Positions 17,877 through 52,027 of a stretch of DNA of 64,000 bases are shown one piece after another (within the stretch, counting starts at the first letter, position 1; each line of letters begins with the position of its first letter). Source of the DNA: an uncultured bacterium (GTDB lineage: Bacteria; Desulfobacterota_D; UBA1144; Nemesobacterales; UBA2774). Position numbers and translations under genes: made by a program. The notes beneath the pieces were generated by a model, which was given only the letters and a program-made list of their open reading frames with translations, was not told the DNA's origin and did no database searches. The stretch covers positions 256,001-320,000 of the forward strand of contig CAWGRW010000009.1 in the NCBI GenBank assembly GCA_963825135.1, read 5' to 3'.

Positions 17877-18021
17877 TTAATTGATCTCCCAACCCCCATC
17901 GAATTAGAAGTAAAATAATTCTACCCGCTTTTCTTACAGAAAATTATATGTGTTCAAAAAGTGAAATTAACAATCTCTTAGAGGAATAGGACAAAGTAAA
18001 TCTAAGAAGTGGTGGATCTTG

Positions 18022-18068
18022 CTGAGATAATTGGCAGCGGGGGGAGGATTTGAACCTCCGGCCTTCGG
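18022..18068 (-). repeat. Degenerate copy of tRNA-Met 3' end plus trailer (att site 1)
   Basis: CTGAGATAATTGGCAGCGGGGGGAGGATTTGAACCTCCGGCCTTCGG versus 34180-34226; 2 mismatches. Confidence 0.9.
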
Positions 18069-18091
18069 CTTCCGTATCCGAGGCCCCTCTT

Positions 18092-19571: not shown

Positions 19572-19684
19572 AATTTCACTCCCTTAAAAAATACATCACC
19601 TTTTACGCTATGATAATGTAGCCAATAATAATTATTCTTAAAAGAGTATAGGCTTTGAATGGATAGCTGCGCAGGTTATTGATG

Positions 19685-19724
19685 TAATTGGTAGCGTGGG
19701 GAGGATTTGAACCTCCGACCTTCG
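19685..19724 (-). repeat. Degenerate copy of tRNA-Met 3' end (att site 2)
   Basis: TAATTGGTAGCGTGGGGAGGATTTGAACCTCCGACCTTCG; 1 mismatch to 34186-34225. Confidence 0.9.
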
Positions 19725-19797
19725 CGGGCATATTTCGACTTACTCTATTTTTCAACCGGTTGAAAAGTGGAGTAATTCAAAGAACCACCCTTTAAAG

Positions 19798-19930
19798 TGA
19801 CCTGCCCCCCTATAATAGGTCCATAGTATAAGTTTGCAATTCGATAAAGAAACGTTTTTACAACAACTGATTAGGGAGAGTAATAAAGAGAAATTTCGTA
19901 AGTTATTTGGGTTTAGAGGGGAGCAGTACA
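19798..19930. mobile_element. Miniature element M1 with IS3-like ends
   Basis: Starts TGACCTGCCCCCCTATAATAGGTCCA and ends GGGGAGCAGTACA; near-identical to 27882-28014. Confidence 0.75.
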
Positions 19931-20073
19931 TCTTTACACAGAGACCCACTTATAATTCCGTTGAGCTTAAGAAGGTAATGTAGTAAAATGGAAATAAGAT
20001 ACAATCCGGAGGACCTAATCTAGCTAGAATATTATATAGTTCCAACCTTGTATTTATTGTAATTGGTAATATC

Positions 20074-20517
20074 ATGAAAAAGCGAGCGGAAAGAGTTAAG
20101 AGAGAAATAAGAGCGATTTTCAGTCCCGATGCTGAAAAGCCTACCAATATAGCCAAGGAGCGAACGTCCCTTTACGCAAATGCATGCAAGTTATTCGGCT
20201 CTTGGAGATATGCGCTTGAGGCATGCGGTATAGATTACGAAAACTCTAGGAATAATAAGAAATGGACACAGGACAGGATTGTTAAGGAGATTAAAAAGCT
20301 CCGGGCAGAAGGCAGCGGTCTGAGACCATCTGTACTTAGAAAAAATGGGAAGACTAGCCTCGTATCTGCAGCCGAGTATCATTTCGGTTCTTGGAGGAGT
20401 GCGGTCGAGACATCCGGCATCAATTATTCCTTCGGGAGAAAGAAGAAAACCGATTGTAGTTTGAGGCAAAGTGAAACAAATAAATCCTGCGATGTCGGCC
20501 GGATACGTACAAAGTGA
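20074..20517 (+). CDS. Stand-alone FGSW-repeat protein (homing-endonuclease-associated-repeat-like), copy 1
   Basis: Two repeats, CKLFGSWRYALEACGI and EYHFGSWRSAVETSGI; basic protein. Confidence 0.7.
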   Translation: MKKRAERVKREIRAIFSPDAEKPTNIAKERTSLYANACKLFGSWRYALEACGIDYENSRNNKKWTQDRIVKEIKKLRAEGSGLRPSVLRKNGKTSLVSAAEYHFGSWRSAVETSGINYSFGRKKKTDCSLRQSETNKSCDVGRIRTK

Positions 20518-20653
20518 CACAGAGTAACAATACTATGGGAGAGGCAAACGCACGCACACCACGCGTACAGTCATCTAAACGTGATTAAGTCTAAACTCTC
20601 GATACTATACTTTCACATACATGGTTCACATGGTATGACAACGTACTACGAGT

Positions 20654-20788
20654 TGTACTGCTCCCCTTTTGTCAAGCCTAGTTTAAGTTGGTATTATGAA
20701 ATCTTGTGCATGCTTAGGAACACTCCCGACGGTATATAAATGCAAAATCAAAGTTAAACTATGATCCTATAATAAGGTGGTCGGGTCT
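20654..20788. mobile_element. Miniature element M2
   Basis: TGTACTGCTCCCCTTTTGTCAAG... through a degenerate ACTATGATCCTATAATAAGGTGGTCGGGTC end. Confidence 0.7.
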
Positions 20789-21015
20789 TTCCTTGAAAAG
20801 TCATTATAGACAGTACAAGATCAATTACAAAATATAAGTAAATCCTAAGATGAATATGGTTGAAACCGATTGTTAAACATTGAGCAATAAAATAAAGCCC
20901 CATGCTCAGATCGACCTCAAAAACATGGGGCTTATTTCGATAATTATCCTAGTACCAATACCATGAGATATCTATATATCGGCTTTCGACAGTTAATAGA
21001 CTCCAAATATCTCAT

Positions 21016-21591
21016 TTAATCAGCACAAGTGTCAGCTGGAATGGTTTTACAATCAACTTGTGTTATTGGACTTGTAAATCTATCATCTTCTTCTACTATA
21101 TTTGGATTGTTGGGATCAAACCATCCACATGCGCCTATAACCTCTCCTGTAGCCATAGTACTGTCCGTAAATATTAGGTGTAACCAGCATTGTGCAGCCT
21201 TATCTGAAAATCCAAAATTTCCACTTGCTACCGATCCAGTCAACGAAATCTGAGTTAGGTAACTGTAAAGTGGGGGGATTGCACTTGCAGCAGCTACATC
21301 CTGCATTGATCCAACCATCACTGCATCCGCACTCCCAGGACCAGGATCTGCTCCTGAAACGCATTGTCTATAAATTCCAGTGACTAGGTTTTGTCCCGCA
21401 AGCTTGATGATTATAAAATCTGTTCCCGGAAAATCAGTTAACGCATAACAGCCTCCAGAAGTTTTTGTACACGGTGGTTTTTTAGGCTGTTGTTTTCTAT
21501 TATCCTTTCCATTTGAAAAGGCGCTACTTGTAAAGACCATCATAAGAACAACAATAAATGTAATTGAAGATATAATTTTTAATTTTCTCAT
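21016..21591 (-). CDS. Exported Cys-containing hypothetical protein
   Basis: RBS GGGAG; MRKLKIISSITFIVVLMMVFTSSAFS signal peptide; hairpin terminator at about 20892-20937. Confidence 0.7.
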   Translation of the reverse strand: MRKLKIISSITFIVVLMMVFTSSAFSNGKDNRKQQPKKPPCTKTSGGCYALTDFPGTDFIIIKLAGQNLVTGIYRQCVSGADPGPGSADAVMVGSMQDVAAASAIPPLYSYLTQISLTGSVASGNFGFSDKAAQCWLHLIFTDSTMATGEVIGACGWFDPNNPNIVEEDDRFTSPITQVDCKTIPADTCAD

Positions 21592-22037
21592 TTTATACTC
21601 TCCCTGAATTTCGGATTTTTTGTGTTTAATACTATTTCCCTTATTCTCAAACAACATTAAACAAACCACTAATCGATGTTAATTTAGAATACATTTGTAT
21701 CCTTAAATTCCCCTCATATGGGAATCATATAACATCCGAAGTCTCTGTTTCACCCATAGGCATCCGCTCCAAGAATAATTTTTGACTATTTTGAAACTCA
21801 ATTGTAGATGGTAGCTTGACTGTAAATAACCGTAATGAGTTGAGATATATATTGATAGAAGTTCAGCCGTAGAAAAAACTAATGAGCTTTTAGAACATCA
21901 ATGAAATCCGCATAAATCTATATTATTCTAAGTTTATCATTAATTTACATTAACCCCATCTAATTATCATTACAACAGGTTCGAGCAGCAAATCATAGTA
22001 TTAATTTTGCTTAATACTATTGACTAAAGAAATCATC

Positions 22038-22110
22038 AAAACTAACTTTAGTAGTAATGGCCAAACCAATACTTTAGTAGTAATGTATAACCAGTACTAA
22101 AGTAGTATTC
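22038..22110 (+). repeat. Three imperfect direct repeats with about 25-bp period
   Basis: ACTTTAGTAGTAATG at 22045 and 22071; related ACTAAAGTAGTATTC at 22096. Confidence 0.65.
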
Positions 22111-22189
22111 CGATACTATTCCCAATAGTCAAAGAGAGTTAACATTACAGTTTGACAGCTTATTATTGAAATAATCCTCTTGAACTCTA

Positions 22190-22660
22190 ACCGGTGTGCG
22201 GTATCCAAGTGCCGAATGAAGGTAACTACTGTTGTAATATTGAACCCACTTATCCAGTTCACAACCAAGATCTCTTTCATTCTTCCATTCCCTTAGCCAA
22301 AAGAGCTCTTCCTATATCGTTCTAATCACTCTCTGTATCCGCGTTCCCTTTAGGGTTGTTATAGCTGGTAAATGCCTGATGGACTTCCAGATTGGAACAT
22401 GCATTCATAAAACTGAGTGATGTAGGCTGACTCCCGTTATCACTCATAAACTTTAGTCCATGACCCCTTACTCCTCCAGGGAACTCTCTGTTTAGTCCTT
22501 TCTCCAAGGCTTCCAGCCATTCTCTGCTTGTAGCTCTTCTTCCACTGTAGTGTCCTACTATCTTCTTCGTATACCAGTCCAGTACTATTACTACATAAAC
22601 CCAGCCACTGTCAGTCATAACCTTCGTCATATCTATTCCCCACCACTGTTTAGGTTCATC
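22190..22660 (-). pseudogene. IS3-family orfB fragment
   Basis: WWGIDMTKVMTDSG...MSDNGSQPT...KGNADTE, homologous to 50873-51643; truncated at both ends. Confidence 0.9.
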
Positions 22661-22664
22661 TGGT

Positions 22665-22816
22665 TATACTGCTACCCTTTTGTCAAACTCGGTTTAAGTT
22701 GGAATTATGAAGAATGCAAGGCTTCCTAACCATTCTGATAACCTTCTGTATATTATATAAGGTGCTTTGTCCAATATCTAATTTAAACTATGGACCTATT
22801 ATAGGGGGGCAGGTCA
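22665..22816. mobile_element. Miniature element M3
   Basis: TATACTGCTACCCTTTTGTCAA ... TGGACCTATTATAGGGGGGCAGGTCA. Confidence 0.8.
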
Positions 22817-22940
22817 GTGACAAAAAACAATATCAAGGTAGTTAACAGTACGCCAATTACAATATAGTTTAATTATTTCATGCTCGATCCCCCTTTATGT
22901 TATTTTGTTCAAAACATTGCTGCCTCAATCTCTTCATGCT

Positions 22941-23753
22941 TCAACTATTAGGTTTCCGGGAAATGAAAAGGTAGTTTCCCGCACGTCCTTCATCAATAAG
23001 ACGAAGATAGGTATCAAAAAATTTAACGTGATGATCAGTGGTCTCTTTTCCCTGCTCTTTCACTATAGCATCGTAGTGTTTTTTAAATGCATCACCCCAT
23101 AGCTTGATTTGGATCCTAAAATTCTCTACATCTTCTATCACCTCCATAACCCGAAATCCCGCTTGCTTGAGTTTAGTTTTATAGCTACCTACTGAATCAT
23201 AGTATTCTGGGATAAGACAACCACGAGACATACGTTTAATGACCTCTGGGTCAGCAGGCATATCTATAGCGCCACTTAGAAAAGTAAATATGCCTTTTGA
23301 TTTTAGAACACGAAGAACCTGTCGGAAAAGCCCTTCCTTATCCTTGAACACATTTATTACATTAAAGCTAATTATCACATTAAATGCGTTTTCTGGAAAT
23401 GGCATTTCCATAGCATCACCAAGATGGAAAGTCGCACGGTCACTGAGACCTGAGTCAGCGGCAAATTTTCTTGCTCGTTCTACCCCGACATCTGAAACAT
23501 CAATTCCCATTATTCGACACCCAGTTTTTTGAGCTATATAGATAGCAGGACCTCCTACACCACTTCCAATGTCCAAAACATAAGTGTCGGCATCTATGCC
23601 TGTCTTTCGAATCAATTCATCGAGATAAGGAGGAGTGATAAAAGACTGCTGTCCGATGTCCTGGTTTCCCCAGATGGTTTTTCGCATCAACCGGTTAGCG
23701 GGACTATCCAACTGATGTAATTCCGAGTAATCTGTGCTCTCTTTCTGTTTCAT
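22941..23753 (-). CDS. Class I SAM-dependent methyltransferase
   Basis: VLDIGSGVGG, GIDVS and GDAMEMPF motifs. Confidence 0.9.
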   Translation of the reverse strand: MKQKESTDYSELHQLDSPANRLMRKTIWGNQDIGQQSFITPPYLDELIRKTGIDADTYVLDIGSGVGGPAIYIAQKTGCRIMGIDVSDVGVERARKFAADSGLSDRATFHLGDAMEMPFPENAFNVIISFNVINVFKDKEGLFRQVLRVLKSKGIFTFLSGAIDMPADPEVIKRMSRGCLIPEYYDSVGSYKTKLKQAGFRVMEVIEDVENFRIQIKLWGDAFKKHYDAIVKEQGKETTDHHVKFFDTYLRLIDEGRAGNYLFISRKPNS

Positions 23754-23862
23754 TTATCCACTCCTTATTGAATATTGTTGCTATTCTAACAAAGTAGAAA
23801 GTAAAAGCAAGGGAGTGTATAGGTTCGCTAGACAAATAGGGATTTTGCTCTATCCAGAATAG

Positions 23863-24721
23863 TCAAGCAGCGTTTATACATAAAGTAATATTCTTGTAAT
23901 ACTCTTCTTCCACCTGTAACGGTGTACGGTATCCATGTGCTGAATGAAGGTAGTTCATATTGTAATATTCAACCCATTTATCCAATTCTAGGCTAAGCTC
24001 TCTTTCATTCTCCCACTCCCTTAACCAAAATATCTCTTCCTTCATTGTTCTTATCATTCTCTCTGTATCTGCGTTTCCTTTTGGGTTGTTGTAGCTTGTA
24101 AATACTTGCTCTACTTCCAGGTTGGAGCAGGCTTTCATAAACTGAGTGAAGTAGGCTGACTCCCGTTATCACTCATGAGTTTTAATTTGCAACCCCTTAC
24201 TCCTATAGGGAACTCTCTGTTTAGTACTTTCTCAAGAGCTTCTAGCCAATCTCTGCTTGTAGCTCTTGTGCCGCTGTAATGACCTACTATCTTCTTCGTA
24301 TACCAGTCCAGTACTATTACTACATATACCCAGCCACTGTCAGTCATAACCTTTGTCATATCTATTCCCCACCACTGTTTAGGTCTGTCCGGTCGGGGCT
24401 TTGGTCTCTCTGATGCCCTCTTTGCTATTAGTCTAGAGTTCGGTTTAACAGTAAGATTATGTTCTCTCATTAACCTGTATACACGCTTCTTGTTTACTAT
24501 AAATCCATCCACGTATCGTAGATATGCCCATACTCTTCTATAACCCCAGAAGGGATGCTCTCCTTTTATATCTTTTATCCTTTCAAGTAAATATTCGTTA
24601 CGAAGAGCTACAGAGTCAGACGTATTTCTCATATGAAGTCTTCCTCTGTTTTTTTTTATTCAACGGTGAGTGAGCCAATTTTCTGCTTTAGCTCCTGATT
24701 CTTCTTACGTAGACGGTTTAC
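23863..24721 (-). pseudogene. IS3-family orfB (frameshift near 24138) plus truncated orfA 3' end
   Basis: Collinear with 50873-51730; AGTTTATG versus intact AGTTTTATG; orfA cut by M4. Confidence 0.92.
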
Positions 24722-24868
24722 TGTATTGCTCCCCATTTGCCAAGTTCGGTTTAAGTTGGAATTATGAAGAATGCGAACACTTCCTGGTCATCGTATTCAC
24801 CTCCTCTTAATGGGGTTTTCTACCGAAAATCTAACTTAACTTATGGACCTATTTTAGGGGGCAGGTCA
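24722..24868. mobile_element. Miniature element M4
   Basis: TGTATTGCTCCCCATTTGCCAAG ... TGGACCTATTTTAGGGGGCAGGTCA. Confidence 0.8.
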
Positions 24869-24975
24869 GTTTGACAACTTCTCCTAAAATTGAAGCTTGA
24901 CACTGGCATATGATTATGAGAAACTCGAATTAATTGTATTCTTATAATAAACAATATATGGGGGAGGTAAATGAT

Positions 24976-25302
24976 ATGGGTAAATTCATAATAGTCTTTT
25001 TAACAATCATTTCTTCTATTGTAATAATCTCCTGTACAACTTACAAACAACCAGAGGCTGTGAATTTCGTAGATCAAGAACAAATAGTCAGAACACAACC
25101 TATACCAAATGATAGTTGCGCAGGTATAAATGATGGGGTTACTCAGTGCAGAACACAGAATGGACGGTCAATGTGCCAGGCATGTTGTAGCGGGGGATGG
25201 CTGCAACTATATGTCAGCTCGGGAAATATCGAATGCCCGTATAGACCCACTGATACCACATTTGAATGTAACTCGACTAAGTATTATGTAGGTTGTAAGT
25301 AA
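24976..25302 (+). CDS. Small Cys-rich lipoprotein
   Basis: GGAGG RBS; lipobox-like IISC; 8 further Cys residues. Confidence 0.7.
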   Translation: MGKFIIVFLTIISSIVIISCTTYKQPEAVNFVDQEQIVRTQPIPNDSCAGINDGVTQCRTQNGRSMCQACCSGGWLQLYVSSGNIECPYRPTDTTFECNSTKYYVGCK

Positions 25303-25487
25303 TAGCAGAGCATTAACCCGCATATGCATTTCCTAATATTCTCTTCCTCTTTGACAAGAGGGCTTTATTTCTAGCCCTAACTTTTTTAATTGAATTATCT
25401 TTCTCCTTTGAGTTAACAAATCCTAACCTTGAGCACAGATATTGAAGAGCATCCATACCGTAGTTATGACCTTCCCCCATTCTTTAT

Positions 25488-25738
25488 TCCACGGCAAGTG
25501 AGAGTTCCTCTGATACACTCATACCGCCGTATTTGCACCTCCAGCGGTAGAACGTCTGCTCGCTTATTCCGTACTTCCGGCATAGCTCGGAAACCTTCGA
25601 CCCTGATTCTTGCTCCCCAAGCACCTTGATAATCTGCTCTTTTCTATATCTACCCTTCGCATGTCCTCCTCCTATCTATTTATTCTTACTTAGGAGAAAT
25701 CTCATTTACAGTGGACTAGTTTTTGGGGAGAAGGTTCG
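25488..25738 (-). pseudogene. Remnant of a second IS3-family (IS407-like) orfA with its left end
   Basis: EQIIKVLGEQESGSKVSELCRKYGISEQTFYRWRCKYGGM; end GAACCTTCTCCCCAAAAACTAGTCCA. Confidence 0.8.
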
Positions 25739-25789
25739 GCTCCCTTTTCTATTTAGTCACCGTATGGAAGCGGGGTATTTGTCCTATTT

Positions 25790-25833
25790 ATAATTCCAAC
25801 TTGAATATTTCTTGACAAAAGGGGAGCAGTACA
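25790..25833 (+). repeat. Isolated IS3 right-end copy
   Basis: ATAATTCCAACTTGAATATTTCTTGACAAAAGGGGAGCAGTACA. Confidence 0.8.
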
Positions 25834-25957
25834 CTTTTCATACCCCAGGGCCTTTCATACCTACGGCCCCGAACCTACCATAACCTCTATCCCGTTAATA
25901 TAGAACTTGAGTCATTTTTGATTAATACTATTCAGTTATAATCAAGACGGGTATGGC

Positions 25958-27073
25958 GTGAGTCATATGGAGAAGAATAACCCCGACAATCATAATCCCG
26001 ACACAACCAAGTTGGGAGAGGTGTTTAAAGAACACTTAAATATCCGTTCCGTCTCGATAACAGGACTATTCTTACTTGCGGTGTTTTACACGCTCTACCT
26101 AGCGGGTGCCATATTTATCCCCGTTTTTTTCGCTATCATCTTAAAACTTTTACTGGCCCCTGCCGTCGATGCTCTGAATAGATTACGCATACCCCAGGCG
26201 CTGGGATCTGCGGTAGTTTTAATGGCGCTCCTGGCTGTTATATCGGCCTCATTTTATATTTTTTATCAACCTGCTGCAGACTGGACAGAAAGGGCTCCCC
26301 AAAGCCTCAGGAAAGTTGAACAGAAGCTTCGTTTCATTAAAGAGCCGGTCGAAAAAGTAAGTGAAGCTACCAAGAGCATGGAAAAGATTACAGACGTAGG
26401 GCCCAAATCCGAAGGGAGTACTGTAGAGGTCAAAAAACCGAAATTGCTCAACACCCTCTTTATTGAGACCTCGGAGTTCATCTTCGGCGTTGCGACCATG
26501 CTAATACTACTTTACTTCCTCCTGGCATCGGGAGATTTATTTCTCCGCAAGGTAATAAACGCACTCCCGAAATTAAAGGATAAGAAACAGGCGGTCGAGA
26601 TAGCGAGACATGTGGAGCGGGACGTATCCACCTACCTTTATACAATAGTAATAATCAATTTCTGCCTCGGCGTTTTGATAGGCGGAGCGATGTATGTCCT
26701 TAATATGCCTAACCCGTTTCTATGGGGTGTCATGGCTGGACTCGTCAACTTCATCCCTTATTTGGGACAGGCGGCGGGGATAACCATCATAGCCATAGTA
26801 GCATTAACTACATTCGATAATACCTATCAAACCATAGTGCCCCCGCTCGTGTACTGCGTAATAATCGGAATTGAAGGGAATATAATAACCCCCATAATAC
26901 TCGGTAGGCGGCTTTTGCTGAATCCGGTAGTGATATTCCTTGCGCTCTTATTATGGGGCTGGATATGGGGGATTCCGGGGGCATTGATCGCTGTCCCGAT
27001 CCTGGTGATACTCAAAATAATCTGTGATAATGTCGAGTCCCTGGGATCTATAGGGGAGTTTCTGGGAAGATAA
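25958..27073 (+). CDS. AI-2E family transporter
   Basis: NFIPYLG, EGNIITPIILGRRLLLNP and WGWIWGIPGALIAVP. Confidence 0.92.
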   Translation: MSHMEKNNPDNHNPDTTKLGEVFKEHLNIRSVSITGLFLLAVFYTLYLAGAIFIPVFFAIILKLLLAPAVDALNRLRIPQALGSAVVLMALLAVISASFYIFYQPAADWTERAPQSLRKVEQKLRFIKEPVEKVSEATKSMEKITDVGPKSEGSTVEVKKPKLLNTLFIETSEFIFGVATMLILLYFLLASGDLFLRKVINALPKLKDKKQAVEIARHVERDVSTYLYTIVIINFCLGVLIGGAMYVLNMPNPFLWGVMAGLVNFIPYLGQAAGITIIAIVALTTFDNTYQTIVPPLVYCVIIGIEGNIITPIILGRRLLLNPVVIFLALLLWGWIWGIPGALIAVPILVILKIICDNVESLGSIGEFLGR

Positions 27074-27338
27074 CTGAAAGCAAACACAAATAAGATAGAC
27101 CGACACTAGCCACACCATTCACTTGGCTAGAAACCACCTGTTCCACAAACAATCGTAAGTGAAAACATCTAACTTTAAGGGGACCTATTTACGTGGACTT
27201 AACACATCCAAAATTCGCTTGACAAGTAGTACTGACTTGTGAGAAAATCGTAATAATAGTAATAATAGTAGTAGGGAAGGTTTCTGCACAAAATGGGATT
27301 AAGTAAAATAAGAATGAAAGAGAAAGGATGTAAAAAAG

Positions 27339-27529
27339 ATGTTTGACAACCATCTCTACAACATCATGGCACAAATAGTCGAAGAACACAAAAGCCTATG
27401 GCGGATCAAAAATATGTATAAAAAAGACGCTTCAGGCTGTAGTCAATGTCAAACCAGTTAGAAAAAGACAAAGAGGATCATATAAAAGAGCTTGAGGAAA
27501 TTATCAAAAAACATATTAACGAATGGTAA
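27339..27529 (+). pseudogene. Small ferritin-like helical protein, frameshifted
   Basis: MFDNHLYNIMAQIVEEHKSLWRIKNMYKKDASGCSQC, then a frame change to LEKDKEDHIKELEEIIKKH. Confidence 0.55.
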
Positions 27530-27625
27530 CTTTTAAAAAGATAAACTAAGAAATTACCACCTTTGCTCATCAAGCTCACCGTAACACTATATGATCATGT
27601 AATTCAATAAAACGGAGGTGATATC

Positions 27626-27784
27626 ATGTCTCTGGGAACAATTTTAATTGTCATTTTAGTCCTGATCTTGATTGGGGTGATTCCTATACACGGTTGGTCG
27701 ACAAATTGGGGTTATGGACCTAGCGGATTGGTCGGATTGATACTGGTAATATTGCTTATTTTGTTGTTATTAGGAAAGCTTTAA
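27626..27784 (+). CDS. DUF3309 family small membrane protein
   Basis: GGAGG RBS; MSLGTILIVILVLILIGVIPIHGWSTNWGYGPSGLVGLIL...; below the ORF-track cutoff. Confidence 0.85.
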   Translation: MSLGTILIVILVLILIGVIPIHGWSTNWGYGPSGLVGLILVILLILLLLGKL

Positions 27785-27881
27785 AAATGCCCCATCACTA
27801 ATCCCGTCCATAGACTCTGTTGGGAGCAAGAGGCAAAATGATCAAGGAGTTGATGTACATGTTGGCCCGGATGGTGTAGCA

Positions 27882-28014
27882 TGACCTGCCCCCCTATAAT
27901 AGGTCCATAGTATAAGTTTGCTATTCGATAAAGAACCGTTTTTGCAACTGCCGATTAGGGAGAGTAATAAAGAGAAATTTCGTAAGTTATTTGGGTTTAA
28001 AGGGGAGCAGTACA
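27882..28014. mobile_element. Miniature element M5
   Basis: Near-identical to M1. Confidence 0.78.
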
Positions 28015-28157
28015 TCTTTACACAGAGACCCTCTTATAATTCCGTTGAGCTTAAGAAGGTAATGTAGTAAAATGGAAATAAGATACAATCCGGAGGACCT
28101 AATCTAGCTAGAATATTATATAGTTCCAACCTCGTATTTATTGTAATAGGTAATTTT

Positions 28158-28538
28158 ATGACTAATCGAGCAGAAAGAGTCAAACGAGAAATTAGAGCGA
28201 TTTTCAAACCCGATGCTATAAAGCCTACCAATATAGCCAAGGAGCGGAGGTCCCTATATATATGCGCATGCAAGCAATTCGGTTCTTGGAGGAATGCTCT
28301 TGAAGCATCAGGAATAGATTACGAGAGCTCTAGGTATTACGAGAAATGGACAAAGGACAAGATTGCTGAGGAGATTAAAAGACTCAATGAACAAGGTAGA
28401 TACCTAAAACCATATATCCTCAGAAAGAGCGGTATGACAAAACTGGTATCCGCTGCAGAGTATCATTTCGGTTCGTGGAGAAGAGCAGTCGAAGCATGTG
28501 GCATCAATTATACATACGGGAGAGAGAAAAAAAAATGA
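28158..28538 (+). CDS. Stand-alone FGSW-repeat protein, copy 2
   Basis: Paralog of 20074-20517. Confidence 0.7.
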   Translation: MTNRAERVKREIRAIFKPDAIKPTNIAKERRSLYICACKQFGSWRNALEASGIDYESSRYYEKWTKDKIAEEIKRLNEQGRYLKPYILRKSGMTKLVSAAEYHFGSWRRAVEACGINYTYGREKKK

Positions 28539-29124
28539 CTGAGGTCAGTAGTGTGTATACACATCATTTTTCGATTCCATCCAGCACTTCAATGTAGTTC
28601 AAGAGCATTTTACCCAAATGGGGAGGCTTTAGTATGTTCTGGGTATTTGGTCTTTGATGTTTGGAATACACTACCAAGCCTGATGATAAACAGTGTAACA
28701 ATTCGACTGAGAACTTCAAAAGAGCCTCCGGATTCAAATACTTAAGCAGGCGATTTTATTTATGGACTGCTTGTAAGTCCGTTGATTACTGCCTTAACGA
28801 CGCGCTTATATGCTGGAACGGTGAGTCGGATTTCTACCGGGAAATCGGGTCGGAAATCGTGGGAAAAATAAGTAAAAAAAAGTAAACTTGCGGGTTCAGA
28901 GAATTGATACGTGTCGTTGGACGACGTGCAGTCATCGAGATGTTCTTTCTGAGAAAAAGAAAATAGGCACATAAAAGCGTCAAACCTAGGAAACCAGTCC
29001 AACCTTCAAATTAATATATTGTAATAATTCTGTTCATATTCTGAAAACAGCGCACCTTACTGGTGTGTAGTGATTCTTCGCCATTCCGTTGACCCCCTGT
29101 ACATAGGGTTTATTGTCAAAAAAT

Positions 29125-29165
29125 ATCTAACTTATACTATGGCCCTATTATAGGGGGGCAGGTCA
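29125..29165 (+). repeat. Isolated IS3-like end (TGACC type, inverted)
   Basis: ATCTAACTTATACTATGGCCCTATTATAGGGGGGCAGGTCA. Confidence 0.75.
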
Positions 29166-29325
29166 CCTCCATACCGCCACCTACACCATCCAACTTGTAG
29201 CGTAACAACCGCCTGTCACTGTCTATACTGTCTTTACAGTCCATTCAGACATTGACTGACCACGCAACCCACATCAGGAATGGGCTTAATTCCTCGTAAT
29301 AAAGTGGGTGCTCTTTCAAATATCT

Positions 29326-29841
29326 TTATTTGGGTGCTTCCGGCATATCCGCCTTAGGCATCTCAGGGGTGTCTACCGTAGGCATCTCCGGTGTATCCAC
29401 TTTAGGTATCTGAGGCATTTCAGCCTTGGGCATCTCCATACTCATCTTGCCCTTTATCCAATATATAACCGGAGTTTTACCCTCCTGATTCAGGGTTGTA
29501 GTTCCCGAGATTGATATACCTGTGACTGTACCCTCCCAATTCATCTTATCCCCCTTATCATTGGTGGTCTCTGCTTTAAATGTCGTAGTTTGTCCACTAA
29601 CGGTCGTTGTATAAGGGGCGCTTCCGAAACCGTACTTCTCACATGCTTTAGATTCAAACGTTCCGTCTTTAAAAATAAACTCATCCTTATCGCCCTTCTT
29701 ACCTTTTTCACCCATCTTACCTACGAAGGTTTTTCCGTCTAAAGCACCCCCTTGAGCAGATGCGGGGAACGTCCCAGCCAGGACAAAAAAGGATAGAACC
29801 ACTAGAAGAGAACAAATCCTCAAGATATTACGTTTACTCAT
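29326..29841 (-). CDS. Exported protein with a C-terminal Pro/Met-rich repeat tail
   Basis: Signal peptide; tail contains (V)DTPEMP repeats. Confidence 0.75.
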   Translation of the reverse strand: MSKRNILRICSLLVVLSFFVLAGTFPASAQGGALDGKTFVGKMGEKGKKGDKDEFIFKDGTFESKACEKYGFGSAPYTTTVSGQTTTFKAETTNDKGDKMNWEGTVTGISISGTTTLNQEGKTPVIYWIKGKMSMEMPKAEMPQIPKVDTPEMPTVDTPEMPKADMPEAPK

Positions 29842-30173
29842 TGCTTGATACCTCTCTTTAGTTTGATTTATGCTCTAACGGAGCATATAAAAAGCATAGC
29901 ATAGCGAAATCTGATTACATTCAAAATTTTTAGTGTAAATCTGTTTGGTCCAACTATTTAAAAAGACGAATAAATTAGTAACCTTCCGCTATTGTCTATG
30001 GACGGAAGCCACCTATCCGTCTGTATTAGGGTCACGGAATTCACTTAGGAACAGTTAAGTCTTGTTAATCGGTTGAAAGCGGGCGGTAAGCGAATAGAGC
30101 CTTTTAATGCTTCGGAACTAAACACTATAATTACCCCTTCCCTTTCTAAGAGGATAACTCCAACCCTTTATTA

Positions 30174-30220
30174 TGTACTGCTCCCCTTTTGTTAAGCTCG
30201 GCTTAAGTTGGATTTATGAA
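30174..30220 (-). repeat. Isolated IS3 right-end copy
   Basis: TGTACTGCTCCCCTTTTGTTAAGCTCGGCTTAAGTTGG. Confidence 0.8.
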
Positions 30221-30257
30221 TAGTCCGATATATCCTGCGTCATCTTTCTGACTAAAC

Positions 30258-30284
30258 AAAAAAGGGAGCCGAAGCTCCCTTTTT
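30258..30284. terminator. Intrinsic (bidirectional) terminator
   Basis: AAAAAAGGGAGC-CGAA-GCTCCCTTTTT. Confidence 0.85.
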
Positions 30285-30303
30285 CTAAATTTATCGGTCC
30301 TAT

Positions 30304-30810
30304 TTATGTATTCGCTATTCCGCGACGGATCGCATATAAACTTGTTAAGACCAATATTCCACCCAGCGCAATGAAGCCCCATTGTGTCAGTGTTGGTATT
30401 GGGGCTTGTACCAGTTTCAAACATTGGGGGACATTGGAACATGATTCCTGTTCGAACCAAGCCTCACCCACTCCATTACAAGCTGAGAAATCAACATCGT
30501 CTGCACAGTTTCTCTCATTATATTCACAGCAACCCGGACCAGAAGCCGGTTCACAGGATTGATCTTGATCGGGAGGTACTAAAACACATTTATAACCTTC
30601 ATCCCCATTTACATACCATGAATTTGAACCGCACAACTCTTCAGATAATGAGCAATTACCGACACATCCCACACATTTGTTAGCATCACGATCATAACAA
30701 CAACCAAGAGTAGCTGGTTGGGATACTCCCAATTTGGGAAAAATCATCATAAGTAACACAACAACAAAAATACTAGAAAGTATTTTGAGAGAACTGTTAG
30801 TTCTTTTCAT
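30304..30810 (-). CDS. Cys-rich IPTL-CTERM protein
   Basis: Signal peptide MKRTNSSLKIL...; C-terminal PIPTLTQWG, TM segment, IRR. Confidence 0.85.
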   Translation of the reverse strand: MKRTNSSLKILSSIFVVVLLMMIFPKLGVSQPATLGCCYDRDANKCVGCVGNCSLSEELCGSNSWYVNGDEGYKCVLVPPDQDQSCEPASGPGCCEYNERNCADDVDFSACNGVGEAWFEQESCSNVPQCLKLVQAPIPTLTQWGFIALGGILVLTSLYAIRRGIANT

Positions 30811-30854
30811 GCCGAGGCTCCCCTTAAACATTGATATTGCAAAATCCCATGTCT

Positions 30855-31742
30855 TTATGCAACTGCTCTCTTTCTGCGTATAACCATAAATCCAATTATT
30901 CCCATTAATCCGGCCATAGCTATTAAGCCCCATTCGGAAAGTGTTGGGATTGGATTCGGGCCCGGTATTACACATGATCCCTTCCAAGCAAGGCCGTCGA
31001 TTGGGATGTCCACGCCGTTCGAGCCGACCAACGTTGCTACCCCGGTGGTTACGTCCAAAGTATACAACTGCGTCGTGGAGACCCCTGCGTTAGCATACAA
31101 AATCTGATTGCATTCATCGTAAGCTAGTCCAACATAGTTGCTGAGAGAGATACCGGTAGGGCCTATAAGGTTCGAGGTGCCAGTTGCGATTGAGATTGTA
31201 TAAAGTGAATCAGTACCTGTAGCGTACAATATACCGTGCGTGTCGTCATATTCCATACCACGGCCATCGATACCAGTACCAGATCCTATAGTCTGTACCG
31301 AGCCGTCCGGGAACTGTGCCGTGAGTATATTGGAATTATTTAGATCAATCGAGTACATAACACCCCCGGCCTCGTCCGCCGCCAGACCATGCCAGTTTGC
31401 CGAACCGTTCTGATTCCCCAGAAACGTTATAATCCCGACCGTCGAGATCGACCCGATGTCATTACCACCTGAACCTCCAGGAAAATTATACAAGTCCGTA
31501 CCGTAGAGAGTTCCCTCCAGGAACGCCAGACCAGTTAAGCTCGCGCCGCCATTGAGCGTAACAATCGGTGTAGCTGCACCGCTGGACGCATCGATAGAGT
31601 ACAAGACGGCAGGGTTAGTGCTCGATAGTCCGATCAACCCATCGGGAAAATCCTGCCCGTTCACCGAACCAACCGTAAATAGAAACGTTAGCACTAAAAC
31701 TAAATTTAATTCAACCAGCGAAAATGCGATAATTCTCCTCAT
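30855..31742 (-). CDS. Beta-propeller-like IPTL-CTERM protein
   Basis: Repeated LY(S/T)IxxxxGxxxxxG blades; C-terminal PIPTLSEWG, TM segment, IRRKR. Confidence 0.88.
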   Translation of the reverse strand: MRRIIAFSLVELNLVLVLTFLFTVGSVNGQDFPDGLIGLSSTNPAVLYSIDASSGAATPIVTLNGGASLTGLAFLEGTLYGTDLYNFPGGSGGNDIGSISTVGIITFLGNQNGSANWHGLAADEAGGVMYSIDLNNSNILTAQFPDGSVQTIGSGTGIDGRGMEYDDTHGILYATGTDSLYTISIATGTSNLIGPTGISLSNYVGLAYDECNQILYANAGVSTTQLYTLDVTTGVATLVGSNGVDIPIDGLAWKGSCVIPGPNPIPTLSEWGLIAMAGLMGIIGFMVIRRKRAVA

Positions 31743-31823
31743 TTCCCCCCTCCTTTGAACATCAAATAAATCCCTACATCGTATAAGTCCCTTTATGAGT
31801 TTATTATATTTCTCATCTTACTG

Positions 31824-31990
31824 TCAAGCAGCATTTAAATGAGAATCATGATCCTTATAAAACGCTTCTTTACCTTTACTGGTGTCCGGTATCCAAGTGC
31901 GGAATGAAGATAACTCCTGTTATAATAATCGACCCACCTATTCAGTTCATGACTCAGTTCTCTTTCACTACCCCACTCTCTCAGCCAAAA
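31824..31990 (-). pseudogene. IS3 orfB 3'-end remnant
   Basis: Reads FWLREWG...YNRSYLHSALGYRTP..., ending AATGCTGCTTGA like the intact copy. Confidence 0.8.
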
Positions 31991-32722
31991 GTGGGGCCTC
32001 CGTATTTTCCTAAAGTATTTCTGTTGATCACTGCCTTAACTACACGCTTATATGCCGAGACGGTGAGTCGGGTTTAGACCGAAAATCAGGTCGGAAATGT
32101 GGGAAAAATAAGTAAAAATAAGTAAACTTGCGGGTTTCAAAAACCTCAAAACCCTAATGTTTCGCTTTTATACTACGTGAAATAATCTAAGTCAAGGCCT
32201 ACAAATAACACGATATTTTTATCGAAAATCTAATAAAATACATGGGTTCAGAGATTGCTAAAACAAGCGACAAGATTATCTACAGTTGATTTGATCCCTC
32301 TCGCGGATTCAGATATTGTTCGCCTCTGTGGTGTGCCAGTGCTCCAAGTAGCTTCTTTACAGCAATAAGATCCTGCTTCTCTTGCTCACTAGGTAGATCT
32401 TCAATGTTATGGTATGGCTGACCATTCTTAGGAAACACTATACTAACAATCTTGCGTTTGGTTTTAGATGGTGTTTTTTTAGGAATAGCTCAATTCACCT
32501 TGTATCTGATAATGTAAGTAGCTAAAATGCGGTGTCAATATCTCCACCACGCCGACAAGACGCCTCTGTGGTGTTTAGCTGGAACTCTTACAACTCGGGG
32601 TTTTTATAAAGTTCGGACGCGGAAAAAGCGGATTAAGTCCTATTATTTTGGAAATAGCGTGTATGAACTAGGGAGCCTTTAGTTCTATCACCTCAGTGTT
32701 TTGTCCCTCAATCAGGTGGAGG

Positions 32723-32748
32723 TGTAAGCTCCCCTAAAAAGTAGACAG
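32723..32748 (+). repeat. Orphan IS3-type terminal repeat
   Basis: TGTAAGCTCCCCTAAAAAGTAGACAG. Confidence 0.5.
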
Positions 32749-32874
32749 GCGATAAGCAGAACTTTCTGGAACCACCTGCCATTAATCCAGCTTAAGCAAG
32801 TCTTTAACATTTCTTATAGAATAATTAATCAAAAGTCTTGACTTTACCAAAAATAGACTATATAATATATAATC

Positions 32875-33084
32875 ATGGTTCAAAAAAGGCTTAGGCCAAA
32901 TCTCATTCATATCTATCTGCATCCAGAAGAAGATAAATTTCTGAAATCCTACGCTGAGAGTAATTATTTCACTGTCTCAGAGCTTATAAGGGGTTGGATT
33001 CATGAAGTTATGAAACGAGATGGTTATGATATTAAAGAGTCATTAGTGCCTGAATTAAAGAAAACTCGTAAGGAGGCAAAATAA
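32875..33084 (+). CDS. Small putative DNA-binding (RHH-like) protein upstream of the integrase
   Basis: Strand-helix-helix pattern IHIYL...TVSELIRGWI; TTGACT...TATAAT promoter elements at about 32839-32866. Confidence 0.55.
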   Translation: MVQKRLRPNLIHIYLHPEEDKFLKSYAESNYFTVSELIRGWIHEVMKRDGYDIKESLVPELKKTRKEAK

Positions 33085-33085
33085 T

Positions 33086-34183
33086 ATGGGAAGTGTTTAT
33101 CTAAGAGGTGGTTCATGGGTTGTTAAATATAAAGACGATAATGGGAACTGGAAGCGTAAGACTCTGGGCCAAGCGCCTGCAATGACGAAAACAATGGCCA
33201 GAGATATACTACGGAAAAAAGAAAGGCAGATTAAGCTCGGTGTATACGATATGTTAGAAACCGTGATACCTACCCTAGCGGACTATTCTAAGGACTATCT
33301 ATCTTATATCAAAGACACCGTAAAAAAACGATCTTGGAAAAGAGACGAGCTATGCTTAAGGCATTTGAAGGCTTTTTTCGGTGACAGGAAGCTATCAAAT
33401 ATCAAACCCCAAGACGTAGACGATTATAAAGCCTCGAGGCTTAATGAGGTCGCTCCGGCAACCGTAAACCGTGAACTGGAGGTATTACGTCATTTGTTCC
33501 ACTTAGCCGATAGATGGAATAAATTTTTCGGTAAGAACCCGGTATCGAGGGCTGGGCTTTTACCCTTGAACAATCAGAAAGAGAGAATCCTTAGCCTTGA
33601 CGAAGAAAAAAGACTCCTTTCCGTTTGTGATACCTATTTACGTAGTATCGTCGTCACAGCCCTATATACTGGCATGAGAAAGGGGGAGATTCTCAGCTTG
33701 AAATGGGAGAACATAGACCTAGATATCAACCTTATTACAATTGACCAGACCAACGCTAAGAGCAAGAAAACAAGACGAATACCCGTTAACTCGGTAATTA
33801 GGGAATTATTATTAGAGCAGAGATTAAAGAGTGCGGGTTGTGAGTATGTATTTCTTAGCTCTAAGGGTACACCATATATGAGACAAGATTCATTAAACAG
33901 AGCGTATTTACTTGCACTCACAAAAGCCGAGATAAAAGGACTAAGATTTCACGATTTGAGACATACTGCTGCTACTAGGTTGATTGAGCTAGGGTACTCC
34001 ATTGTACCCGTGAAGGAGATACTCGGTCATGCGAGTATTAACACGACTATGAGATATGTACACCCAAGCGAATCTTTGAGAACTGCATTAGAGGGACTCA
34101 CGACCTATTTTTCTGACTCACTTGGTCACAAATCAGGTCACACGAACAACAACCAGAGATCGGATGATAACGTAACTTACTGA
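33086..34183 (+). CDS. int: Phage-type tyrosine integrase
   Basis: TGMRKGE, FHDLRH, LGH and TMRY catalytic motifs; N-terminal arm-type strands. Confidence 0.95.
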   Translation: MGSVYLRGGSWVVKYKDDNGNWKRKTLGQAPAMTKTMARDILRKKERQIKLGVYDMLETVIPTLADYSKDYLSYIKDTVKKRSWKRDELCLRHLKAFFGDRKLSNIKPQDVDDYKASRLNEVAPATVNRELEVLRHLFHLADRWNKFFGKNPVSRAGLLPLNNQKERILSLDEEKRLLSVCDTYLRSIVVTALYTGMRKGEILSLKWENIDLDINLITIDQTNAKSKKTRRIPVNSVIRELLLEQRLKSAGCEYVFLSSKGTPYMRQDSLNRAYLLALTKAEIKGLRFHDLRHTAATRLIELGYSIVPVKEILGHASINTTMRYVHPSESLRTALEGLTTYFSDSLGHKSGHTNNNQRSDDNVTY

Positions 34184-34189
34184 GATAAT

Positions 34190-34266
34190 TGGTAGCGGGG
34201 GGAGGATTTGAACCTCCGACCTTCGGGTTATGAGCCCGACGAGCTGCCAAGCTGCTCCACCCCGCG
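34190..34266 (-). tRNA. Initiator tRNA-fMet (CAT)
   Basis: CGCGGGGTGGAGCAGCTTGG...GGGCTCATAACCC...GGTTCAAATCC...CCCGCTACCA; C1:A72 mismatch and three G-C pairs in the anticodon stem. Confidence 0.97.
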
Positions 34267-49508: not shown

Positions 49509-49981
49509 ATCACTGCTCCTTTTGTGAATATTCTCATTTATCTACATACATATATGTTACGAACCTCGGCCGTCCCGCGCAAGCCGGGGGCCCCCCGGCA
49601 AGGCCTCCGCTAATCAACTGAGCGCCCGGCCCGGTTAATGGAAAGTCCCCGTGGGGGAGATTATTTATTCCGGCCTGCAATTAACCCGTATCCCCGTATA
49701 CACAGATGTGATAATATGATTTTAGAGAGCGTATGTACTGCACCCTTTTGTCAAGTTGGGTTTAAGTTGGGACCGAAGCTTTAATCTAAAAAAAATTGTG
49801 ATTTGTCAATCTGCAAGTGGGATTGATTTCATCTTACAACTGCGCCATTACAAAACACTCCTAACCTGCTATATTGTTTTATAATAAAAATGGGTTTCTG
49901 GCGGATTTGAATTGGTGATATCTGGGGGCACAAACCCCATTTATCTAGTTATACAGGATATAATAAGAGAGGATATTAAAA

Positions 49982-50824
49982 ATGAAAAATATTGAAAGAG
50001 CCGTAGCTCAACATTACGGGGTCCCAGACCTTTTGGAGCGTATTTACAAGGGGCTTGAGGCTGCTGGCACGGAGTTAAACCGCTTACAGCCCGAAGATTT
50101 GGCTCCTGTTGACGAGTATCATATCGGGGGACGCAAAGCCACTGCACATGCCATTGAAAAGATGTCCTTGAACAAGGATCAACATGTTCTTGATATTGGC
50201 TGTGGCATAGGCGGCACTGCACGCTACATGGCCGAGAAGATTGGATGTAAAGTAACGGGCATAGACTTGACGCCTGAATATATTTCAATCGCTAAGACAC
50301 TAACGGATCTGACTGGCCTAGGCAACAATGTGACCTACAAAGTTGCCAGCGCTCTTGACATGCCCTTTGAAAGTAAAACCTTCGATGCGGCGATAACTAT
50401 CCATGTTGCCATGAATATCCCGGAGCGAGCAACGCTTTATCGTGAAATTGCACGGGTTATGAAACCTGGCGCGACGCTTTGTATTTACGATGTGATGAAA
50501 AAAAGTGATGAAAGCTTTTCCTTTCCCGTGCCGTGGGCGGAATCGGCAGTTACCAGTCATCTGACAACGCCAGAAGAAATGTGCACTCTTCTTGATGATG
50601 CCGGGTTTGATGTTCGCGAAGTCGACGATCGCACTGATTTTGCGCTCAACTTCTTCAAACAGAGTTTGGCTGCCGCTGCAGATGGGCCACCCCCTCTCGG
50701 GATACATCTTATAATTGGCTCGAGTGCCCCCGAGAAGTTAAAGAATATGCAGAGCAATATTGAGAACGGCTGTATCTCCGTTGTGCAAATGATTGCAGGC
50801 CGGTGTACTAACCCCCCGTTTTGA
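49982..50824 (+). CDS. Class I SAM-dependent methyltransferase (passenger)
   Basis: DEYHIGG, VLDIGCGIGG, GIDLT, HVAMNI and FPVPWA. Confidence 0.92.
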   Translation: MKNIERAVAQHYGVPDLLERIYKGLEAAGTELNRLQPEDLAPVDEYHIGGRKATAHAIEKMSLNKDQHVLDIGCGIGGTARYMAEKIGCKVTGIDLTPEYISIAKTLTDLTGLGNNVTYKVASALDMPFESKTFDAAITIHVAMNIPERATLYREIARVMKPGATLCIYDVMKKSDESFSFPVPWAESAVTSHLTTPEEMCTLLDDAGFDVREVDDRTDFALNFFKQSLAAAADGPPPLGIHLIIGSSAPEKLKNMQSNIENGCISVVQMIAGRCTNPPF

Positions 50825-50872
50825 AGGGACTGAAGGCGCGTAAGTGTGTCCACTGGTACTGATCACCTTATA

Positions 50873-51915: not shown

Positions 51916-52027
51916 TGCTCCCTCCCTCTGGGTTTTGCAGACATTTTACTAGCTTAATTCTACTAGCTTCTTAATGGGGAGCATTATACGTATTTACTCT
52001 TAAACGCGAGAACAGGGGGGAATTAAA

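Follow-up and report, generated by a model that had tools for sequence, protein, structure and literature searches.

A probable transporter-type lineage of IS3-family insertion sequences in Dadabacteria-type genomes

Transporter insertion sequences (transporter IS, tIS) are regarded as marking the transition between insertion sequences and transposons. Members of the IS3 family have inverted repeats terminating in 5'-TG...CA-3' and a target duplication of 3-5 bp. The tIS class is restricted to IS1595 and IS66 in the parts of the TnCentral preprint drawn on here (10.1101/2021.05.26.445724). Passenger examples in IS1595, IS1380, and IS481 appear in passages of PMC11891212, and one passenger-bearing IS6 member in an excerpt of PMC7986276. 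IS3 is unnamed in the tIS lists of these three sources, as far as those passages go. ISPpy1 is cited in a section of PMC9330008 as one possible IS3 case of ISEcp1/ISPme1-like capture. Neither this clade nor any passenger-bearing IS3 lineage was described in the papers covered by our literature search; the leading IS reviews and ISfinder lay outside its scope, and individual passenger-carrying IS3 elements may already be recorded there. In this study, we analysed a 64-kb window (the whole stretch of 64,000 nucleotides) and related loci. The best explanation as a whole, and a probable one, is that an IS3-family clade in Dadabacteria-type genomes became a transporter-IS lineage.

Transposase and family assignment

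The copy at 49734-51988 was the sole complete one within the window and was flanked by a 4-bp CGTA duplication (Table 1). Its insertion site, cargo included, was empty in four of six same-genus loci (L219, L220, L222, and L223), and the empty site carried the CGTA target as a single copy. orfA, encoding a helix-turn-helix, and orfB lie in overlapping frames, with orfB in -1 and an ATGA overlap at 51640-51643. Matches to HTH_Tnp_1, HTH_21, rve, and rve_3 were found in orfA/orfB. The DD(35)E triad was formed by D91, D155, and E191, and the motifs were present in 41-42 of the 42 intact orfB copies. The IS3-family profile NF033516 scored 178 bits (cut-off 160), and the IS2 OrfB profile NF006918 scored 58.8 bits, far below the cut-off of 597 for the IS2 subgroup. 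Its sequence places the element in the IS3 family, with ends like those of IS2; the element appears to resemble IS2 in its workings, yet to lie outside IS2 by OrfB profile.

Right ends had TG tips in 22/22 and left ends had TA tips in 66/67; the IS2 left end also departs from the CA consensus, according to an excerpt of PMC3299598. Duplications of 4 bp were observed at 22 cargo copies, 2 compact clade copies, and 7 outgroup copies. An A-run frameshift motif was present, as a sequence motif, in 102 of 127 loci, and the A8 run in orfA at 51660-51667 would likely serve as a -1 frameshift site.

orfB was under purifying selection, with a median dN/dS of 0.13 (860 pairs), and an intact orfB was missing from 10 of the 22 duplication-flanked units. 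Among the 42 intact orfB genes, there were no copies more than 97% identical at different sites, and therefore no recent activity or burst is shown. Half of the inner branches of the clade tree (33/66) were unresolved, and midpoint rooting was spoiled by a long-branch artefact from L069, a deleted derivative. Viral contigs had no exact match to the end pattern, and the plasmid collection gave only distant IS3-family matches, at 32-35% identity among the best listed.

Right ends that bound the mobile unit

Close relatives were defined as loci with orfB at least 75% identical. Among these, an exact 4-bp duplication paired the left end with the distal right end in 22 of 32 cases, leaving 10 distal ends without one; for the inner end the count was 2 of 13, and the chance level was a shuffle maximum of 7 in 20,000. 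Distant relatives were compact, with duplications at the near end in 7/13 and at the distal end in 0/3. The first-pass annotation had proposed checking whether other copies end directly after orfB and whether cargo units have no duplication. The 22 units answered both in the negative, since each had one target duplication around its passenger and single transposase, as in a transporter IS. Three further duplication-flanked copies occurred in the window's own genome besides the 49 kb unit, and the four units had four different cargo sets. On contig C8 of that genome, one unit had two outer ends, and the duplication paired with the farther one. The same cargo was found at different sites in L039/L040, in L114/L121, and in window unit 2/L056. 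We consider it very probable, from these duplications, that the cargo unit moves as a whole with its distal right end. In this reading, the mobile unit runs from the left end through orfA and orfB, past a decayed inner end and the passenger(s), to the distal right end.

Ordinary decay of composite transposons was weighed against this reading. In that case, a compact IS accumulates in islands, copies that happen to pair occasionally mobilise the intervening DNA, and everything else is debris, with no special property of the lineage. It would fit the number of right ends, which far exceeded that of transposases (up to 66 in one genome), the orfB tails inside the cargo regions of L105 and L135, and most clustered end pairs being without duplication. 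Among 20 regions rich in ends from G014 and G036, no end pair with an exact duplication was found, and 17 further regions gave only 2 such pairs; most ends are debris. It would also fit the compact, duplication-flanked copies L125 and L132 inside the clade, which indicate that the inner end can still work. However, chance composites should end in copies of the inner end, and the box was present within one mismatch in 20/22 duplication-matched distal ends versus 0/20 inner ends. Cargo units outnumbered compact ones 22 to 2, a terminator-right end junction was common to 18 loci, and the 49 kb unit stood alone in the core chromosome at a site empty in relatives. Composite transposons are flanked by two IS copies, and the distal side here was an end or end module only (four own-genome units, L034, L037, and L056). 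A composite origin of cargo units is possible, but as a general account composite decay is unlikely.

In 21/22 units, the left-end binding box was matched more closely by the distal end than by the inner one. The two distal ends that deviated in the box, L100 and L175, retained the tip, and boxes matched in compact outgroups (8/11 at 8/10 or more). All 22 distal ends started with TG, their consensus was conserved over ~38 bases, and they read as the 3' end of an orfB (N-S-N-L-N-x-A-stop). The distal end is thus an authentic, conserved, and dedicated class rather than a chance look-alike. These properties bear on a capture process like that of ISEcp1 or ISPme1, in which a weak inner end is skipped, downstream host look-alikes are used, and the adjoining gene is picked up. 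The inner end was indeed weak, 23 of 30 sense-strand cargos began within 151 bases behind orfB, and L034, L100, and L156 had multi-gene cargos resembling host genes. With distal ends that are not degenerate, however, such capture is highly improbable. Its description is near the wording of the first-pass annotation.

At the 49 kb copy, the inner end matched 13/18 bases (background mean 6, 95th percentile 9); it matched 7/18 in L056, and at its sister at 23863 the inner end was unrecognisable. The first-pass annotation had described orfB 3' ends without their own right end and an identity that stops after the orfB stop (GCTTGAC). The inner end has decayed rather than been cut off. The likeness at GCTTGAC comes from an overlap between the native right end and the stop codon of orfB; at the 49 kb copy the decayed inner end persists beyond that stop. 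A testable reason for the switch may be that the outer end, which no longer encodes the last codons of the transposase, fits the binding box better.

The T end is the left end of a second IS3-family element and occurs fused with right ends as modules. A reading of such modules as free MITEs was not supported, as 0/16 had their own 3- or 4-base duplication. The T element's own right end in L079 differed, and the distal end was rejected as its native right end.

Truncated units in the island and a proposed mechanism

A scan of the window with a 23-base end pattern (at most 3 mismatches) gave 5 matches versus 0 in 100 shuffles and missed 49734 because of a one-base gap. The right ends claimed at 20654, 22665, 30174, and 49734 were all present, and two more were found at 24722 (+) and 25833 (-). 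Also confirmed were the cargo genes at 21016-21591, 22941-23753, 30304-30810 and 30855-31742 (both IPTL-CTERM), and 49982-50824, and the unit called intact at 49734/49982/50873 was complete with an intact orfB (50873-51643).

Table 1. Features of the complete element and of the island units in the window.
Feature	Position	Strand	Remark
Target duplication CGTA, right-end side	49730..49733		single-copy empty site in relatives
Distal right end, complete element	49734..49772	+	tip TG, box TTAAGTTGG
Passenger, SAM-dependent methyltransferase, 280 aa	49982..50824	+	Methyltransf_11 E 3e-22; antisense to transposase
Decayed inner right end	50855..50872	+	13/18 bases match
orfB, 256 aa	50873..51643	-	intact; D91-D155-E191 (DD35E)
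orfA, 91 aa	51640..51915	-	HTH_Tnp_1
Left end, complete element	51945..51988	-	tip TA
Target duplication CGTA, left-end side	51989..51992
Low-GC island, tRNA-Met repeat to tRNA-Met (34190-34266)	19685..34225		tyrosine integrase at 33086-34183
Unit 1 distal right end	20654..20800	+	decayed T end ~120-140 bases inside
Unit 1 passenger, 191 aa	21016..21591	-	hydrophobic N-terminus
Unit 1 broken orfB 3' part, residues 81-255	~22141..22663	-	cut exactly at next right end's tip
Unit 2 right end fused to intact T end, 152-base module	22665..22816	+	tip TA here, TG in L056
Older decayed right end, probable, weak	22881..22902	+	by-eye comparison with L068; between methyltransferase and module
Unit 2 passenger, SAM-dependent methyltransferase, 270 aa	22941..23753	-	same cargo in TTTG-flanked L056
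Unit 2 frameshifted orfB and last 30 orfA codons	23863..24721	-	whole orfB 23863-24632; cut at next right end's tip
Right end fused to intact T end, 147-base module	24722..24868	+
Small lipoprotein-like gene	24934..25302	+	abuts T tip; same neighbourhood in G036
Opposite-orientation right end	25787..25833	-	decayed terminator inside
Unit 3 distal right end and shared terminator	30174..30283	+
Unit 3 passenger 2, 168 aa, cysteine-rich, IPTL-CTERM-like tail	30304..30810	-	95% copy at G000:C9:2188835-2189362
Unit 3 passenger 1, IPTL-CTERM protein, 295 aa	30855..31742	-	83% identical to AGCC-flanked L097 cargo
Unit 3 broken orfB 3' piece	31824..32032	-	residues 188-247 at 31853-32032; stop at 31824

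Left ends and target duplications were absent from all three island units. Right tips abutted orfB/orfA interiors exactly (22663/22665 and 24721/24722). The unit 1 passenger had no Pfam, NCBIfam, or locus homologue, and its Atlas hits reached only 0.83. Positions 22667-24720 shared 94% identity across 2064 bases with L056, an intact copy at another site with a TTTG duplication, and the L097 cargo corresponds to the first gene of the unit at 30174; the island units are therefore truncated members of the cargo-carrying class. The description of the island as a stack of such units was borne out for the truncated units, which are stacked, but they account for only ~7 kb of the 14.5 kb integrase/tRNA-Met island.

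The island integrase raises the question of whether it drives a cassette system that recombines at the repeats, with transposase pieces as bystanders. The same-orientation repeats with single genes between them and the adjoining integrase would suit such a system, as would tyrosine integrase relatives near the clusters L154, L180, and L181. Against it, the repeats pair in inverted orientation with the left end and have 4-bp duplications beside them, the integrase scored 61 bits on the integron model TIGR02249 (cut-off 265), and complete units were found far from any integrase. We regard a cassette system as barely credible.

For the IS3-type element itself, we propose a mechanism by analogy with IS2 and IS30. 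The transposase would cut the distal right end at its TG tip, and this end would be joined one base outside the TA tip of the left end to form a circle. The circle junction would create a promoter (TTGACA-17-TATACT), and the circle would then be pasted into a target. Adjacent copies would likewise be joined by junctions into head-to-tail arrays. Such a reactive junction could attack inside the next copy and delete its left end and the transposase front, which would leave the window pattern of right end, cargo, and orfB tail. One-base junctions with 17-base promoter spacing were found in L196 and L197 (right-left) and in L099 (right-T), all chromosomal. In four contig sets matched at 80%, no circle junction was found; internal deletions and one compact-type inner end were seen there. 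Among the sequencing samples listed, the best shared 0.26 of the sequence words, and none was an RNA sample. We lean towards junction deletion as the origin of the stack.

Cargo could be gained by two routes. The left end may pair with a farther right end in an array and so gain the intervening DNA, or recombination at shared modules, chiefly the IPTL-CTERM tail and terminator by the right end, may swap the passenger domain. Whether both routes together were the main source of new cargo is evenly balanced in our judgement. The claim that the lineage repeatedly captures neighbouring genes through distal right ends was thus supported as to distal-ended cargo units (22/32), but neighbour capture itself is putative, and part of the turnover reflects swaps at shared modules. 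An IS-free donor site with matching borders was found for none of the cargos. The idea of cargo as low-GC foreign DNA was rejected, as cargo GC was overall not below that of the flanks (9/19).

Passenger modules and comparison with known systems

Most intact copies in the clade carried a passenger gene, often for a surface protein, and the passenger varied from copy to copy. The sister transposases L056 and L097 (support 100/96) had unrelated cargo and modules. In 18 of 41 cargo loci, unrelated domains were joined to a common terminal module, made up of a terminator that in most cases follows an IPTL-CTERM sorting tail. The 17 IPTL-tailed passengers formed 11 unrelated groups, and the own genome encodes the cognate exosortase. 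The shared terminator followed 8/18 element-type tails versus 0/35 host-type tails. End traces were found at five chromosomal IPTL genes, two strong and three weak. A tail swap was seen in the own genome, where 30258-30947 and C9:2188719-2189408 were 95% identical from the PTLSEWG codons on and the preceding gene bodies were unrelated.

These modules may tentatively be viewed as a mobile display platform, although we hold this to be doubtful. The right-end module would supply the IPTL-CTERM sorting signal, stop, and terminator, any domain recombined upstream would become a surface-anchored transposable gene, and part of the large set of IPTL-CTERM surface proteins in the host would have originated through the lineage. 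More plainly, the element may merely draw on a family of host genes in which tails are exchanged in any case. The clade links a mobile element to surface-protein diversification in a little-studied phylum-level lineage. IS annotators will truncate such elements at the orfB stop.

Small non-autonomous end modules also help to mobilise DNA in TIMEs and MITE-built mosaic transposons, as outlined in part of PMC4133298; those are Tn3-derived, unlike the T-right-end modules described above. Insertion beside ends, head-to-tail junctions, and junction-end deletions are known from IS30 and IS911 (passages of PMC9333248) and would yield an island stack. They are described there for bare elements, whereas here the units bring cargo and the left end of a second IS3 member (T) is used in junctions. 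In ISEcp1 transposition units and ISPme1 TMos, a single transposase and the DNA 3' of it likewise move as one, in the account given in a section of PMC9330008, but those elements misrecognise look-alikes, while the outer end here is authentic and better than the inner one. IS2 shares the asymmetric ends and the one-base junction that builds a 17-base-spaced promoter (excerpt of PMC3299598). It differs in that the protein here is distant and the units have a 4-bp duplication, a distal working end, and cargo. Transporter IS also have one transposase, terminal inverted repeats, internal passengers, and a single duplication around the whole. Unlike in those, most members of an entire clade carry passengers here, and cargo turns over among near relatives. 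The IS3 clade as a whole lines up the stages, from compact copies, through an intact inner end with an outer end and a decayed inner end, to the addition of a second outer end.

Distal right ends and movement with cargo

The four units described in the first-pass annotation were present: three in the island, with right ends at 20654, 22665 and 30174 (units 1-3), and the 49 kb copy. The end pattern gave 5 matches in the window at up to 3 mismatches, versus 0 in 100 shuffles. The proteins are IS3-family orfA and orfB products; orfB has the catalytic residues D91-D155-E191, and an A8 run precedes the ATGA overlap of orfA and orfB.

A census of relatives (n=127) was compiled from 44 genome-contig loci, the best 80 of 349 metagenome matches and three own elements. 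Eight census loci missing the orfB 3' end were dropped, as were others, mostly from short contigs, in which no left-end flank or no right end downstream was present. Close relatives were defined by orfB identity of at least 75%; 41 were scorable, with a frameshifted own copy added by hand. A right end beyond the cargo (distal end) was found in 32 of these 41. An exact 4-base duplication of left flank and distal end was found in 22 of the 32, with three more at 3/4. Flank shuffling gave at most 7 in 20,000 trials, compared with the 22 observed. A right end directly behind orfB (inner end) was recognisable in 13 scorable close relatives, with a duplication there in two. In the 14 distant relatives, four of which are one element in one genome, the duplication was at the end right behind orfB in 7/13 (3 more at 3/4) and at a distal match in 0/3. 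Tabulating orfB homologs, as proposed at first pass, thus showed that close copies do not always end at orfB.

The distant compact elements came from Chloroflexota, Planctomycetota, Ignavibacteria, Zixibacteria and others, and named close relatives were titled Dadabacteria, Thermodesulfobacteriota or Deltaproteobacteria. Host range was inferred from named rows because metagenome contigs carry no host label. A branch with 100/100 support parted the two sets in the tree; the close set was internally largely unresolved.

The 49 kb copy carries its duplication on both sides (Table). Six same-genus loci with the neighbouring hydrolase gene were compared at this site. Four (L219, L220, L222 and L223) had the homologous stretch upstream but neither transposase nor methyltransferase in it, and in the remaining two the neighbourhood differed. 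Three other units in the source genome were duplication-flanked; on contig C8, the farther outer end bears the duplication. These results indicate that the unit moves together with its cargo.

The first-pass annotation had noted that in two cases identity to the right end stops just after the orfB stop (GCTTGAC). This likeness is explained by an overlap between the native right end and the stop codon of orfB. Inner ends range from intact down to unrecognisable. The distal end descends from a right end of the family, because its sequence still reads like the orfB C-terminus. In compact outgroups, the subterminal boxes of left and right ends agreed (8/11 at ≥8/10). In the cargo clade, the match to the left box averaged 7.9/10 at the distal end versus 5.3/10 at the inner position, and the distal end was better in 21 of 22 paired cases. 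TTAAGTTGG was exact in 18/22 duplication-matched distal ends and 36/67 left ends, and within one mismatch in 0/20 inner ends. Judged from these sequences, the working end is the distal one. After an outer end had arisen, no coding constraint would have acted on it and it may have been retained or tuned for binding, and the inner end may have drifted.

Purifying selection acts on orfB (median dN/dS 0.13; 860 pairs, 42 intact genes). No pair above 97% identity at different sites was found among the 42 genes, and orfB was broken or altered in 10 of the 22 duplication-flanked units. We conclude that the process is old or slow.

Cargo kinds and turnover

Among the passengers, 39 of which were scanned, are methyltransferases, a glycosyltransferase-glucoamylase pair, a lipase, an alkyl sulfatase, an oxidoreductase, an ion-channel-like protein, beta-propellers, and pentapeptide and thaumatin-domain lipoproteins. 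A strongly hydrophobic N-terminal stretch was present in 29 of 39 main cargo proteins, compared with 32% of 1686 long ORFs of contig C9 by a crude test.

Shared modules were located at cargo borders. A common terminator lay beside the distal end in 18 of 41 cargo loci, mostly after an in-frame IPTL-CTERM sorting tail, and an intact T end in four. A second IS3-family element, probably similar to the IS407 group, has T as its left end. The 16 distinct T-right-end modules abutted 16 different sequences, with a duplication of their own in 0/16. Members of another cargo group have a 5' spacer and lipoprotein signal in common, with different domains downstream.

After tail removal, 17 tailed passengers fell into 11 groups. 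The source genome (3.1 Mb) encodes exosortase H and gave up to 85 tail-profile matches, 68 of them on the three main contigs at E ≤1e-4. One gene body was found with both tail types, and a block of 95% identity that begins with the tail codons follows unrelated bodies; therefore, tail swapping happens, which the element may drive or simply accompany. Gain of extra cargo via a farther end was seen on C8, and unit 2 hints at it. No cargo gene was traced to a known neighbour free of the IS. L202, an IPTL-CTERM locus, may be a fossil, domesticated unit.

The island

Units 1-3 have a tyrosine integrase nearby and lie within a low-GC island flanked by a tRNA-Met repeat and tRNA-Met. The island had been described as a stack of units. 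Three units are there. No left end was found within it, and on the minus strand every right tip is fused into the interior of the next unit's transposase. Over 2064 bases, unit 2 shares 94% identity with L056, a complete unit with a TTTG duplication at another site in genome G009, and the first gene of unit 3 matches, at 83% identity, the cargo of L097, which is flanked by AGCC. The stack may have arisen by junction-driven deletion, or one unit may have inserted into another, the left part being lost afterwards. In clusters of this kind, most ends are debris.

The partial tRNA-Met copies suggest tandem integration events. The repeated non-coding stretch may belong to the machinery of the integrative element itself.

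Table. Coordinates of units and neighbouring features (W, window; C8-C10, contigs of source genome G000; L, examined loci)
Feature	Position	Duplication	Description
Complete unit	W 49734-51988	CGTA	Core chromosome, outside island
Own-genome unit	C9:2619997-2622385	TTCG	IPTL-CTERM gene
Own-genome unit	C9:2127229-2128610	GGAT	Internal deletion, inner end intact, CAP/RTX-repeat protein
Own-genome unit	C8:2698-5895	GAAA	Two cargos, two outer ends
Right tip	W 24722		Fused into orfA
Right tip	W 22665		Fused into orfB codon 81
tRNA-Met sequences	W 18018-18071, 19676-19724, 34176-34229		Two partial copies upstream of island, RNB-domain gene between them
652-base repeat, 85% identical	W 19798-20517, 27882-28538		T end, third end type facing T (tips 19931, 28015), then gene with HNH-associated repeats
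Third copy of HNH-associated-repeat gene	C9:2220018-2220397
Conserved non-coding stretch	W 28778-28896, 31992-32219; L056:5126-5342		In L056, beside integrase fragment
24934 gene	W 24934; longer relative L193:17090-19646 (G036)		Relative flanked by whole degenerate T element and T-right-end module
1116-aa ORF	W 11709-15059		In/near island
HD-GYP/HAMP protein	W 16653-17876		In/near island
AI-2E transporter	W 25958-27073		In/near island
DUF3309 gene	W 27626-27784		In/near island
tRNA-island genes	C9:2329721-2332641		By-eye labels: subtilase-like gene, cyanobactin-cluster-like protein, two short cysteine-rich precursor-like ORFs; T end adjoins
47-base mini elements	L069:5955-6001, 6751-6797		Left-type tip joined to right end
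Stretch with cytochrome c gene	L069:5955 to right end at 7106	TGAA
Distal-type right end	L033:1953 onward		Fused directly to 3' end of apparent other DDE transposase (by eye)
Tandem IPTL-CTERM arrays	C10 146-158 kb; C9 11-15 kb, 662-667 kb		Long
L202	C9:2680753-2682675		477-aa IPTL-CTERM gene, orfA remnant upstream, weak right-end remnant downstream

Junctions and comparison with known elements

Left-end tips read TA in 66/67 cases and right-end tips TG in 22/22. A one-base junction was predicted beforehand from the spacing. Two right-N1-left junctions, both in G094, came out of an exact-pattern search of 101 genomes; in L099, a script detected a right-N1-T junction. In all three, 17 bases separate a -35-like hexamer from the tip that follows, and both right-left junctions have TATACT as -10. 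Two loci (L196 and L197) are cargo units in head-to-tail arrays. In IS2, the right end is donor, the left end is recipient, and the one-base junction forms a promoter (PMC3299598). In IS30, such junctions arise through insertion beside ends, and junction ends give rise to deletions (PMC9333248). By analogy, transposition would proceed by chemistry like the IS2/IS30 junction route.

A search that stopped short of the standard IS reviews and ISfinder found no published account of the clade. The element belongs to the IS3 family and is probably IS2-like in its working, but it is no member of the IS2 group. It does not qualify as an ISEcp1-type unit, a two-copy composite or an integron; it has the structure that defines a transporter IS.
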